The position numbers and the translations under genes were made by a program. From Deltaproteobacteria bacterium (lineage in GTDB: Bacteria; Desulfobacterota; Binatia; UBA9968; JAJDTQ01), in contig JAPPHF010000144.1 in the NCBI GenBank assembly GCA_028821115.1, positions 105 through 64,104 on the forward strand: 64,000 nt of DNA, read 5' to 3'. Below are positions 6,933 through 55,272 of this stretch, piece by piece. The notes under the pieces are model-generated. The model was given only the letters and a program-made list of their open reading frames with translations, was not told the DNA's origin and did no database searches. Position 1 is the first letter of the stretch. Each line of letters opens with the position of its first letter.

Positions 6933-7039
6933 CCGCCCGCGGCACGGCCGACAGTCCTGCAAGCAGTGGGGCGGCAGAACCGGCGGCTGTAGTGCGGAGC
7001 CTGCCGCCGGGGACATGGGCGGCATGCGACCCGGACGGT

Positions 7040-8080
7040 TCACCCGACGAGAGCACCGAACACCACACCGCTCAGGATGGCGCCGGCGATGCCGAAGGCC
7101 ACATAGGCGGCGAACACCTGCCGCCGTACCAGCGCCCACACGGCGACCATGGCCGGGATGCTGCTCACGGACCCCGCGACCATGAACGCCATTGCCGCTC
7201 CAGCGCTCATGCCCTGTTGCATGAGGCCGGCGACCAGAGCGGGTGCGGCATATCCGTTCAGGTAAGCCGGCGCACTGACCAGTGCACCCATCACGATGGG
7301 CGCGAGACCATCCCCGCCGACAACCCCCGCGATCATGCGGGCCGGCACGTACGTGATGAGCAACGCCTCGAGAAGATAGGCGAACGCGAGCCACTTGACG
7401 AGAAACCGCGCGTTCGAGAACGCTTCGGAGCGGAACGTCGCCACCCGCGACGCCTCGCGCCAGAACTGCCATACGGTACCGCCCGTCGCGAACGTGCTTT
7501 CGCAACCGCCACAGGCAACACCCGCGTCTTTACGCAACGGGGAGGCGAAGGCTTCCCGCCGGGCGAGGAGGCGCACCCCAAAGCCCCCGAACAACCCCAG
7601 CGCCACAGCCGCGGCCGCCTTGCTCGCCGCGAAGTCCCAGCCGAGGGCAGCGGCGGTGATGAGCACGGTCGGCGGATCAACGAGCGGGGAGGACAGCCAA
7701 AACGCCATGATCGCGGAGATCGGCGCGCCGGCCGCGAGAAGGGCCGCGATGAAGGGGATGACGTCGCACGAGCAGAAGGGGGCGAGGCTGCCGAGGAGCG
7801 CCGCCAGCACGATCATGCGCGTCTCACGGCCCTCGAAGGCGCGCGCGACCAGTGTCGCCGCCCCAGCGGCCTTGAGGCCGGCGATGAGCGCGACTGCCGC
7901 AACGACATACGGCAGCGTTCCCACGAACGAGCCGACGGCGATGTGCAGGATGCCGGCGAGGCTCGGCAGGTCGATGGCCGCCACGGCAAGGGGGAGGGCG
8001 AGGATGACCCCCCACACGGACACCAATCCCTTGACCCCGGTATGCAGCCCGCCGATACCGCGAAGTGCCAATTCCGTCAC
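7040..8080 (-). CDS. arsP: ArsP-type permease (PF03773, putative organoarsenical efflux)
   Basis: 346-aa polytopic protein with the LAPFCSCDVIPF motif (the TPFcSCS-like signature of ArsP/YraQ permeases). It overlaps the arsR stop by 4 nt. Confidence 0.7.
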   Translation of the reverse strand: MTELALRGIGGLHTGVKGLVSVWGVILALPLAVAAIDLPSLAGILHIAVGSFVGTLPYVVAAVALIAGLKAAGAATLVARAFEGRETRMIVLAALLGSLAPFCSCDVIPFIAALLAAGAPISAIMAFWLSSPLVDPPTVLITAAALGWDFAASKAAAAVALGLFGGFGVRLLARREAFASPLRKDAGVACGGCESTFATGGTVWQFWREASRVATFRSEAFSNARFLVKWLAFAYLLEALLITYVPARMIAGVVGGDGLAPIVMGALVSAPAYLNGYAAPALVAGLMQQGMSAGAAMAFMVAGSVSSIPAMVAVWALVRRQVFAAYVAFGIAGAILSGVVFGALVG

Positions 8081-9765: not shown

Positions 9766-9867
9766 GGGTTCCTAACTTAACATTTCGATAGTCGGTTGAC
9801 GACTCATGTGCTCAGTGTGGTGCGTCACACTAGGGACACTCTGATCAATCGGCGTCGAGCGAGATGT

Positions 9868-9984
9868 CGCCCTTCGACTTCGCTTCGCTACGCCTGTCCT
9901 GAGCCTTGTCGAAGGGCTCAGGGCGAACGGTTTGGGACTCTCCTCCCGTTCGCCCTGAGCGTAGCGAAGCGAAGTCGAAGGGCG
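9868..9984. repeat. Nested-palindromic intergenic repeat (MITE/REP-like), copy A
   Basis: The arms CGCCCTTCGACTTCGCTTCGCTACGC and GCGTAGCGAAGCGAAGTCGAAGGGCG are perfect inverted repeats. They enclose inner palindromes CCTGAGC/GCTCAGG and GGGCGAACGG/CCGTTCGCCC. Related copies lie at 24741, 29011 and 47965. Confidence 0.8.
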
Positions 9985-10001
9985 ACCCGTACAAATTCTC
10001 C

Positions 10002-24710: not shown

Positions 24711-24740
24711 AATAGGGAATGCTACGATGTCGGCAGAGCA

Positions 24741-24838
24741 CGGCGTCCTTCGACTTCGCTCGACTCCGCCTCGCTACGCTCAGGACGAACGGTCAAACAG
24801 CTTTCGTCTCCGTTCGTCCTAAGCGTAGCCGAAAGACG
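24741..24838. repeat. Nested-palindromic intergenic repeat (MITE/REP-like), copy B, shorter variant
   Basis: Shares CCTTCGACTTCGC...CGCTACGCTCAGGACGAACGG...CCGTTCGTCCTAAGCGTAGC with copies A and D. Lies in the gyrB-gyrA intergenic. Confidence 0.75.
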
Positions 24839-24877
24839 CCAATTGATCGGAGTTTTCCCAAGAGGACGTGGCACTTA

Positions 24878-27446: not shown

Positions 27447-27532
27447 CCGGACGGGGCTCGGACGGGTGGCCGTGGGCTCATTGGAAGGCAGCACAAGTTG
27501 GCTGTCGATTGGTTCGGCACGAGTGCGTGCGG

Positions 27533-27620
27533 CGGGGGGGGGGGGGGGGGGGGGCCCCGCCCGGGCGGGGGGGCGCGCCCCCCCCCCCCCCCGCGGGGGC
27601 CCCCCCCCCCCCCCCCCGCG
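27533..27620. repeat. Extreme G/C homopolymer tract (G~24, then C~14 and C~17 runs separated by short GC-only spacers)
   Basis: Seen directly: gcggcgggggggggggggggggggggggccccgcccgggcgggggggcgcgcccccccccccccgcgggggccccccccccccccccc. The G and C runs are mutually complementary. Confidence 0.9.
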
Positions 27621-29010: not shown

Positions 29011-29055
29011 GGCGCCATTCGCCCTGAGCGTAGCAAAGCGAAGTCGAAGGGCGCC
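29011..29055. repeat. Nested-palindromic intergenic repeat, copy C (right half only)
   Basis: TTCGCCCTGAGCGTAGCAAAGCGAAGTCGAAGGGCGCC matches the right arm of copy A. Confidence 0.7.
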
Positions 29056-29088
29056 AACCCGTGTCAGACGGAGTTTCTCAACAGCCTG

Positions 29089-47898: not shown

Positions 47899-47964
47899 GT
47901 CACCATCCTTACGAGTCTGTCCGAGTGCTTCCAGGGGGAGCGATTCCCAGGGGCAGCGGAAGGG

Positions 47965-48093
47965 GTCCTTCGACTTCGCGACGCTGCGCTACGCCTGTCC
48001 TGAGCTTGTCGAAGGGCTCAGGACGAACGGAGAAAGCAATCACAACCGTTCGTCCTGAGCGTAGCGACGCGAAACGTCGCGCAGTCGAAGGAC
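47965..48093. repeat. Nested-palindromic intergenic repeat (MITE/REP-like), copy D
   Basis: GTCCTTCGACTTCGCG...CTGTCCTGAGCTTGTCGAAGGGCTCAGGACGAACGG...CCGTTCGTCCTGAGCGTAGCGACGCGAAACGTCGCGCAGTCGAAGGAC. It has the same architecture as copy A with a compensatory-looking arm variant. Confidence 0.8.
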
Positions 48094-48116
48094 AGTTCGA
48101 TTGCTCGGACAAGCTC

Positions 48117-54741: not shown

Positions 54742-55272
54742 TCAGCCCGGAGCAGACCGGGACCGGCCATCTCCGATCCAACCGACACTTAGAGTAGCCA
54801 CTCCGGTGAGCACCAGCGTGATCCCCGAGAACACCGTACGAACGACGTTCCAGCGCTGCCACGGTTCAGAATAGGACTGCCATACCGCTTTCGCGCGCGC
54901 CGAATCCAACGGGGTCTCCACCAGTGCCAGCGTCTCATTGAGCGCGACGTTGACGGTGACAGTCGGAACCATGGCGCCCAGAACGTAGAGCACAACACCC
55001 GCGCCAAAAAAGAGAGCGGCCTGTCCTTCCCCACATTTCCACGCTACCAACGCCGCAGCCATCAGGACCAACGGTGTACCCCAGAATGCGGGGGCGAAGA
55101 CAAGGTTGCGCACGCTGGCGTTCATCGCCTGCATGGCGGCGATGGCGACGTTGGGATCCGCCGCATCCAGGCCCCACATCGTCGAACAGACCCAAGCATA
55201 AAAGAACCCGAAAATGGCTCCCGAAAACAACAGGGCCAGCACCGCCATGGGCGTCAGAAGGAATATCCGCAT
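54742..55272 (-). CDS. DUF1772 (anthrone-oxygenase-like) membrane protein
   Basis: 4-TM 176-aa protein with a DUF1772-like pattern (FFYAW...AAMQAMN...NVALNETL...W..YS..W..WN.VRT). Confidence 0.55.
   Translation of the reverse strand: MRIFLLTPMAVLALLFSGAIFGFFYAWVCSTMWGLDAADPNVAIAAMQAMNASVRNLVFAPAFWGTPLVLMAAALVAWKCGEGQAALFFGAGVVLYVLGAMVPTVTVNVALNETLALVETPLDSARAKAVWQSYSEPWQRWNVVRTVFSGITLVLTGVATLSVGWIGDGRSRSAPG

Follow-up and report, generated by a model that had tools for sequence, protein, structure and literature searches.

Repetitive extragenic palindromes (REPs) are, according to Di Nocera et al. (2013, PMC3733652), short extragenic imperfect palindromes which occur as singletons and as inverted dimers; among them are GTAG- and CGTC-tagged superfamilies, the latter with no known transposase. 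REPIN-RAYT systems are characterised in published abstracts as lineage-specific and vertically inherited. A second known system to be considered is the bacterial Slx1 family of minimal GIY-YIG domains, to which the solved structures 1zg2 and 1ywl belong; this lineage is considered in PMC1564403 to be mainly vertically inherited and distinct from the one that yielded the selfish GIY-YIG enzymes. In the present work a stretch of 64,000 nucleotides (the window; positions 105 to 64,104 of the forward strand of contig JAPPHF010000144.1, GenBank assembly GCA_028821115.1, a Deltaproteobacteria bacterium of the GTDB lineage Desulfobacterota; Binatia) was analysed, in which a preliminary description had pointed out four intergenic copies of a nested palindromic repeat. 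All four, designated here as elements A to D, were present. On balance we lean towards the view that these elements, one solo unit and three doublets, are non-autonomous copies of a widespread family of hairpin units, some members of which carry a GIY-YIG nuclease gene, and that the family is spread by break-and-copy.

The preliminary description treated the repeat as a fixed element of approx. 120 nt. Comparison with the loci returned by a gapped core pattern, which was scanned over one genome per species and gave at least 119 loci, replaced it by a building block of approx. 40 nt (range about 39-60 nt), the hairpin unit CCGTTCG-Y-CCTGAGCGTAG-(variable apical hairpin)-GRAGTCGAAGG-R-CG, which is found solo, as an inverted doublet or nested, one unit within another. 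The unit core (identical 13+8 nt) was detected in at least about 13 phyla, isolates included, and the dispersed intergenic palindromic repeat family that had been proposed is thus present far beyond the window. Among the matches listed were Binatia, Thermodesulfobacteriota, Myxococcota (Anaeromyxobacter), Acidobacteriota, Nitrospirota, Gamma-, Beta- and Alphaproteobacteria, Verrucomicrobiota, Planctomycetota, Eremiobacterota, Chloroflexota, Cyanobacteriota, Patescibacteria and one Streptomycetaceae metagenome-assembled genome (MAG), and the isolates among them included Lysobacter, Rhodanobacter, Granulicella and Microcoleus. The 139 elements comprised 103 solo units and 36 pairs, 29 of the latter inverted; in 21 inverted pairs the CCGTTCG ends face the loop, which is the form of A, B and D, and in 8 the opposite ends do so. 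The loops of 38 doublets were 8-30 nt long and mostly unrelated in sequence. Intergenic position was found for 118 of the 139 elements. The core pattern gave no unit copies in 2.9 million viral contigs, and blastn gave none in the PLSDB plasmids. The peptide PSTSLRYA, reported as common to spurious open reading frames (ORFs) across the copies, was found again, since CCTTCGACTTCGCTTCGCTACGC reads P-S-T-S-L-R-Y-A. Other unit-derived peptides (...PELVEGR..., ...FDKLRANG..., ...VILSEAKDL...) are familiar as spurious ORFs in many environmental genomes.

The association of the units with a nuclease gene came from ORFs that are enclosed by inverted units. GIY-YIG ORFs of approx. 100 aa were obtained in this way in a Gammaproteobacteria MAG (locus L044) and in Binatia (L059), with PF01541 matches of E = 7e-18 and 8e-18, and the two nucleases are homologous to each other (E = 1e-42). 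Small (~97 aa) stand-alone GIY-YIG genes had units on both sides or on one side in 12 of 13 contexts, and in independent look-ups of homologues units were located within 0-130 nt in all of the eight cases. In the usual layout a unit of the same orientation ends 0-55 nt upstream of the start codon and an inverted unit often follows the stop codon. The genes were situated in unrelated operon spacers (oadB-carboxyltransferase, ureD-ureA, ABC-phoU, GMC oxidoreductase-enoyl-CoA hydratase), and in the isolate Methylocaldum marinum the gene lies in the ureD-ureA spacer inside the loop of a doublet of the window type. Next to the plasmid-borne homologues from Sphingomonas and Methylobacterium (identities of 59% and 51%) the units are variants whose stems show compensated changes; one has GGCTGAGCGAAGTCGAAGCC, the other CCTGAGGTGCC...GGCCTCGAAGG, and the nuclease of cluster P0066 is accompanied by the variant unit GTGCTGAGGTATCGAAGCAC. 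Thus the nuclease clade and the unit variant change together.

At a threshold of E <= 1e-10 the nuclease family comprised 3733 clusters, of which many come from very short contigs (<2 kb), and the subfamily was practically absent from viral contigs. The protein is 93-106 aa long and GIY-YIG is the sole domain detected in it; no NCBIfam match was obtained. The catalytic residues Y6, Y15/Y16, G18, R26, H30 and E63 were invariant in 12 sequences. The closest solved structures were 1zg2 (E = 7.8e-20) and 1ywl (E = 7.2e-14), and E. coli yhbQ and B. subtilis yazA were recovered at 37-39% identity; the NCBI name of YhbQ is DNA damage response exodeoxyribonuclease.

The 97-aa GIY-YIG protein of M. marinum (P0031; L203 1501-1794, AP017928.1) is named 'tRNA/rRNA methyltransferase SpoU' in NCBI and UniRef, a name that was probably transferred by mistake from a gene lying next to it in other genomes; the Sphingomonas homologue (L228) adjoins an RNA methyltransferase gene. 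In Binatia-like contigs tandem arrays of short repeats were observed between units upstream of the GIY-YIG gene (L239 370-630, L241 470-630, L202 1270-1400). One type has a repeat of approx. 24 nt, CTGGAATCCCATTTGGGCCAGGAC, the other is GGGTTTTTGTCGCGGAGGGATAAC-like, and the copy number varies between orthologous loci.

The unit-linked nucleases resemble two known kinds of GIY-YIG enzyme. With the free-standing homing endonucleases (I-TevI/Seg) they share the location of a nuclease gene within repeated, horizontally spread DNA, a proposed break-and-copy spread without target-site duplication, and the replacement of a unit interior between conserved flanks, as templated repair predicts. They differ from these in that the protein is an approx. 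97-aa catalytic domain with no NUMOD or other DNA-binding domain, that the presumed target is a hairpin repeat with many copies per genome and not a unique gene, that phage contigs are virtually devoid of the gene, and that it is of the Slx1 lineage, whereas the known selfish enzymes come from the UvrC+ lineage (PMC1564403). With the Slx1/UPF0213/YhbQ-YazA proteins they share sequence relationship and a minimal GIY-YIG domain free of auxiliary domains. However, YhbQ-YazA are regarded as vertically inherited repair-type enzymes, while the unit-linked clade sits in dispersed repeats, in unrelated operon spacers and in many phyla.

The unit has the shape of a rod, with a basal stem CGYCCT/AGGRCG (covarying over 4-6 bp), an internal GAGCGTA opposite GRAGTCGA and an apical hairpin at the tip. 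In the GAGCGTA/GRAGTCGA region sheared G.A pairs can form in tandem, with a single T bulged out. The commonest and shortest apical part is GCGNAGC, and mini-hairpins of the d(GCGAAGC) type are exceptionally stable. Longer apical parts were nearly always perfect hairpins, with more than 30 different stems and mostly GCA or GAA loops (GNA triloop); apical segments formed a hairpin over 59% of their length as compared with 9% in shuffled sequences. The stem pair adjoining CCT/AGG was UA in 72 cases, CG in 50, UG in 20, GC in 1 and another combination in 2. Most core columns of the alignment were fixed by the search pattern and hence uninformative. The stem-pair cells were 93% paired, as against 32-48% in slid registers, and the covariation score was 0.172, compared with 0.111 in shuffles and reached by none of 500 shuffles. 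Variant families show compensated changes in the core stem as well, GGCT...AGCC replacing YCCT...AGGR. Compensatory covariation had been predicted to appear when many copies were aligned, and it did; since copies also exist beyond the window, neither of the two outcomes named in advance as fatal to the preliminary description was seen. Its suggestion that selection acts on structure rather than on sequence has to be abandoned: from phylum to phylum there is hardly any change in the internal core CTGAG...GTAG...AGTCGAAG, whereas the flanking stem and the apical hairpin covary.

The family behaves at the level of DNA and not at that of the transcript. Solo units between co-directional genes were sense in 21 cases and antisense in 22, so a strand-specific RNA role is unlikely. 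T.G wobbles were far more frequent than C.A (21 vs 2; at pair 17-49 UG amounted to 44), which implies that the G-rich strand is the strand that folds. The minimum-energy DNA fold of this strand gives the proposed unit pairing, with an energy no better than chance.

In the window the four elements are composed of the parts given below; bit scores and E-values are those of covariance model R1.

9866 to 9986, no strand: element A, an inverted doublet in the pyrF-ribBA spacer, with 28-nt arms at 9866-9893 and 9959-9986 that are 100% complementary

9863 to 9930, minus strand: left unit of A, 'type B', with a mini-unit nested after CCTGA (33.1 bits, E = 4.9e-7)

9890 to 9923, plus strand: nested mini-unit of A, CTGTCCTGAGCCTTGTCGAAGGGC, a core without GTAG or apical hairpin (21.6 bits, E = 7.6e-4)

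9931 to 9945, no strand: central loop of A, 15 nt, TTTGGGACTCTCCTC

9946 to 9989, plus strand: right unit of A, canonical and minimal, with the GCGAAGC apical mini-hairpin (64.6 bits, E = 8e-16)

24739 to 24792, minus strand: left unit of element B in the gyrB-gyrA spacer, with the extended apical segment AGGCGGAGTCGAGC (63.0 bits)

24793 to 24809, no strand: central loop of B

24810 to 24843, plus strand: right unit of B, truncated and degenerate, CCGTTCGTCCTAAGCGTAGCCGAAAGACGCC (16.9 bits, E = 0.016)

29015 to 29058, plus strand: element C in the aroQ-MFS spacer, consisting of one solo unit whose orientation is antisense to the neighbouring genes (58.4 bits)

47959 to 48030, minus strand: left unit of element D, type B (32.1 bits)

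47991 to 48023, plus strand: nested mini-unit of D (22.1 bits)

48031 to 48045, no strand: central loop of D, AGAAAGCAATCACAA

48046 to 48099, plus strand: right unit of D, with the 6-bp apical hairpin GCGACG-CGAAA-CGTCGC (52.2 bits)

The 26-nt perfect inverted arms that had been ascribed to all copies are a property of element A alone. The 26-mer or its complement occurs at 9868-9893 and 9959-9984 and, with one mismatch, at 29028-29053, where none is expected in shuffled sequence; B is truncated, C has no partner (left) arm and differs from the arm of A by the one mismatch, and in D the arms are diverged and unequal in length. The further palindromes said to be enclosed by the arms are likewise limited to A and D, which possess the inner mini-palindrome: it is absent from B (24739-24843), a simpler doublet than A, and C is a single unit. 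In D (47959-48099) the right arm has its own apical hairpin, GCGACGCGAAACGTCGC, and the D-specific arm changes pair with each other in the fold, so the observation that they preserve pairing was correct. The degenerate right unit of B still pairs with the left arm of B in the RNA fold, and the pairing proposed for the right unit of A was reproduced by the minimum-energy DNA fold. Folding of the copies as RNA gave far better energies than shuffles for three of the elements, namely A (-94.5 kcal/mol, z = -13.3), B (z about -6 to -8) and D (z about -6.4), and not for C (z = -1.8). As DNA, element A folded with -56.5 kcal/mol (z = -12.4 against shuffles).

The position of the copies in spacers of housekeeping operons was confirmed by Pfam, which assigned DHBP_synthase/GTP_cyclohydro2 and OMPdecase to the genes flanking A, gyrA and gyrB to those flanking B, and MFS_1 and DHquinase_II to those flanking C; D lies between a GFO_IDH_MocA gene and an unassigned ORF of 729 aa. 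For all four elements the flanking genes lie on the minus strand. The window belongs to a soil-type metagenome scaffold, and Candidatus Binatia MAGs are its nearest named relatives. When the entire window was scanned with the covariance model and filters off, no further convincing copies beyond A-D were obtained, and a match of 18 bits at 55017-55074 was rejected because it lies within coding sequence and is not unit-like. The search for tRNA and tmRNA genes gave none.

Copies of the family were gained or lost between close relatives. Element A is absent from the pyrF-ribBA spacer in relatives with 93, 91 and 86% RibBA identity. The composite form of its left unit is present also at L034, L011, L060 and L212 and extends to other phyla, and whole A-type composites were found at 81-88% identity in other Binatia and in Thermodesulfobacteriota genomes; since they recur across genomes, they were copied as wholes. 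At one locus represented in several metagenomes (L212/L214 vs L216, 97% identity) the unit interior differs exactly between CCTGAGC and GAAGTCGAAGG, one allele having a 37-nt type-B interior and the other GTAGCGCAGC. Such an interior swap would be the outcome expected of templated repair or gene conversion from another copy.

Two side observations concern the same architecture. At L079 5044-5109 and L090 2734-2795 a complete mini-unit, CCTGAGCCTGTCGAAGGGC, replaces the apical hairpin, and from this unit-within-unit arrangement it would seem that not only the position after CCTGA but also the apex is a target of insertion or conversion. At L002 93-2198 an inverted unit pair surrounds approx. 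2 kb in which two ORFs lie, one BrnA-antitoxin-like (Pfam E = 6e-18) and the other, of 367 aa, unmatched in Pfam; this segment may be cargo bounded by units.

These data can be accommodated by the following model, in which the adjacency of unit and nuclease gene is observed and the steps are proposed. The G-rich strand would fold as single-stranded or cruciform DNA, and the folded unit or cruciform would be the substrate of the GIY-YIG nuclease, acting as a structure-selective enzyme. A nick or break in a unit would then be repaired by copying another copy, in a homing or gene conversion process for which the conserved core would supply the homology. Copying of this kind would spread units, doublets and occasionally the nuclease gene, and would keep the core constant across hosts. 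The copies in the window would simply be carried along in operon spacers and would influence the host operons only incidentally; the long perfect hairpins which they place on polycistronic mRNAs may alter processing or stability as a side effect.

Several observations weigh against this model. The window contains no GIY-YIG nuclease gene, and a homologue at 45% identity had no units. The layout of gene and units varies, being mostly unit(+)-ORF-unit(-), in M. marinum unit(-)-ORF-unit(+), and in some cases an upstream unit only. Homing of the gene into pre-existing repeats, or its tolerance there, could be all that the adjacency means. The spacers of the relatives lacking element A were otherwise unalignable, and for this reason an exact filled-versus-empty junction was not obtained. 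Nearest-neighbour energies of single units were no better than those of shuffled sequences (z = -0.8 to +0.1). The unit fold is accordingly based on covariation and on what is known of G.A and GNA motifs, and covariation was measurable at few pairs only because the search pattern had fixed many columns. The sense and antisense counts of the solo units were derived from heuristic GC3-based gene calls.

A more far-reaching proposal is that the units and the Slx1-like GIY-YIG gene together constitute an unrecognised pan-bacterial selfish element, whose nuclease would cut hairpins or cruciforms of its own repeat and which would spread both by break-and-copy; we put it forward tentatively, as a possibility that falls somewhat short of being probable. 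A hairpin element with a GIY-YIG gene is apparently undescribed, and no paper linking GIY-YIG with repetitive extragenic palindromes or with bacterial miniature inverted-repeat transposable elements (MITEs) was found in the open-access literature and bioRxiv. If the proposal is true, some of the many UPF0213 proteins would acquire a biological role, and an intergenic repeat that is among the commonest in environmental genomes would be accounted for, together with the spurious 'hypothetical proteins' translated from it; REP superfamilies without a transposase might also obtain the mobilising enzyme that they lack. Action of the nuclease on the repeats, if it takes place, would amount to a new bacterial route of DNA mobility which does without DDE or HUH transposases. 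Palindromic intergenic repeats as such are a known kind. What is unusual here is the near-constant core across at least about 13 phyla, the self-similar hairpin architecture with G.A pairs and GNA triloops, and the consistent link to a minimal GIY-YIG protein of the Slx1 lineage, a lineage held to be one of vertical repair enzymes. The repeats also have practical consequences, since they break metagenome assemblies, seed spurious ORFs and put stable hairpins within housekeeping operons, e.g. gyrB-gyrA.

The main rivals of this model are a structural role for which the host selects, the nuclease gene having settled there secondarily, and an unseen RAYT. According to the former the elements would be hairpins for mRNA processing or stability, attenuators, or sites for nucleoid or topology proteins, as has been suggested for REP/BIME elements; they would be retained for their regulation of the flanking genes, and the GIY-YIG gene would parasitise them. 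This would be consistent with the location of the four window copies, which all lie between co-directional genes of operons, with the general setting of the elements (62 between co-directional genes and 24 between convergent ones, against 19 between divergent ones), with the very stable hairpins that doublets form on either strand, and with the gyrB-gyrA spacer, where relatives hold a different palindrome, as though some hairpin were wanted there. However, the solo units have no orientation preference, close relatives do without element A, and in L124 gyrB and gyrA are only 2 nt apart. On neither strand is any of the four elements followed by a T-run, which excludes an intrinsic terminator, and Rfam gave nothing at gathering thresholds over the window; on element A even a permissive search reached at best 12-15 bits, compared with gathering scores of 38-60. 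A function in one lineage would also leave the near-identical core in at least about 13 phyla unexplained. We therefore think a host signal unlikely.

A resemblance to the hammerhead ribozyme, seen by eye in CUGA...GAA, was also followed up and rejected: G8 and A9 are absent and no hammerhead model matched.

The other main rival is an ordinary REP/REPIN system, in which the units would be REPs and the doublets REPINs, mobilised in trans by a single-copy Y1 HUH transposase (RAYT) located elsewhere in the genome, and the GIY-YIG gene would be an unrelated tenant. The REP-like label of the preliminary description is justified in so far as the units are short extragenic palindromes that form inverted dimers, as PMC3733652 describes for REPs. 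The likeness goes further: singletons, inverted dimers and clusters are found, mostly in co-directional or convergent spacers, with compensatory stem changes and G.T pairs, and the GTAG tetranucleotide stands at the foot of the apical hairpin. The absence of target-site duplications together with the strand-specific wobble asymmetry would fit single-strand HUH chemistry, and since a RAYT is a single-copy gene, a sample of 8-kb blocks could miss it.

Against this, a search in which E. coli YafM and IS608 TnpA served as queries gave no Y1 (RAYT) transposase adjoining a unit in the 119 loci (8-kb blocks, approx. 0.9 Mb) and the window. The sole Y1_Tnp ORF (L017, a Verrucomicrobiae MAG, 1340-2240, Pfam E = 2e-27) is IS200-like and lies 5 kb from the unit. 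The core is not lineage-specific, as REPIN-RAYT systems are according to published abstracts, but is common to at least about 13 phyla. The conserved part is an internal purine-rich loop and not a terminal tag with its stem; GTAG, whose invariance follows from the construction of the search pattern, sits inside the larger conserved rod and, it seems, not in an unpaired terminal tag, and mini-units and variant units without GTAG exist. The gene associated with the units is a GIY-YIG nuclease, and the 12 of 13 GIY-YIG contexts with unit variants that track the nuclease clade would be left unexplained. The unit core is not described in the text of PMC3733652, a survey of tagged REPs in prokaryotes; identity with one of the families surveyed there retains a small probability. 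An ordinary REP/REPIN system thus appears quite improbable.

The palindromes on either side of the Y1 ORF of L017, CGTCCCGGAGGGACG and CCCGGCAATTCATTGCCGGG, belong to another family, and together with this ORF they resemble a pairing of the RAYT/REP type that has no relation to the present units. The same locus (6990-7040) holds a member of a second unit class, which was found also at L026, L050, L058, L066, L082, L093 and L119, in Acidobacteriota, Verrucomicrobiota, Eremiobacterota, Planctomycetota and Parcubacteria. This class starts with YTGTCATCCTGAGCG..., which replaces the CCGTTCGYCC... start of the window class, and ends with ...GAAGGATC. Its TGTCAT... start recalls the TGTC variant of the CGTC tag (PMC3733652).

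The MITE label, which implies an internally deleted DDE insertion sequence whose terminal inverted repeats serve its cut-and-paste movement, would suit the terminal inverted arms, the small size, the high copy number and the intergenic position, but it fails the target-site-duplication test (0 nt in 23 of 29 doublets, 1 nt in 5 and 2 nt in 1, which argues against a DDE-type MITE), units are often solo or nested, clustering of 4261 ORFs from the loci showed ordinary housekeeping families only and no transposase-like family recurring in the vicinity of units, and the ORF within full-length relatives encodes a GIY-YIG nuclease and not a DDE enzyme, so that this explanation is close to refuted.

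Integron attC sites resemble the units in being imperfect palindromes with a conserved stem, an unpaired centre, an extrahelical base and a variable terminal structure, of which a single folded strand becomes the substrate. The units differ from them in being dispersed singly in operon spacers, with no cassette arrays and no integrase nearby. An attC reading was rejected, as the RYYYAAC/GTTRRRY core sites are absent and the unit ends are CCGTTCGY... and ...GGRCG.

The surroundings of element B showed some further peculiarities. The closest GyrB relatives, from JGI metagenomes, are 73-75% identical and have another palindrome in the gyrB-gyrA spacer. It is of the GTTCAA-N-CGTTCAA type, reads as ...FKRFK.../...LNDLN... 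and was located at L121 5790-5900, L122 3490-3560 and L123 4060-4170. Unrelated hairpin repeats seem to have settled in the gyrB-gyrA spacer repeatedly. Between the start of gyrB and the end of the MFS gene, at 27532-27620 of the window, there is in addition a palindrome of G- and C-runs, GCGG(G)n CCCCGCCCGGGCGGGGGGGCGCG (C)n GCGGGGG (C)n GCG, which could be either a real G4- or hairpin-forming tract or an artefact of sequencing or assembly.

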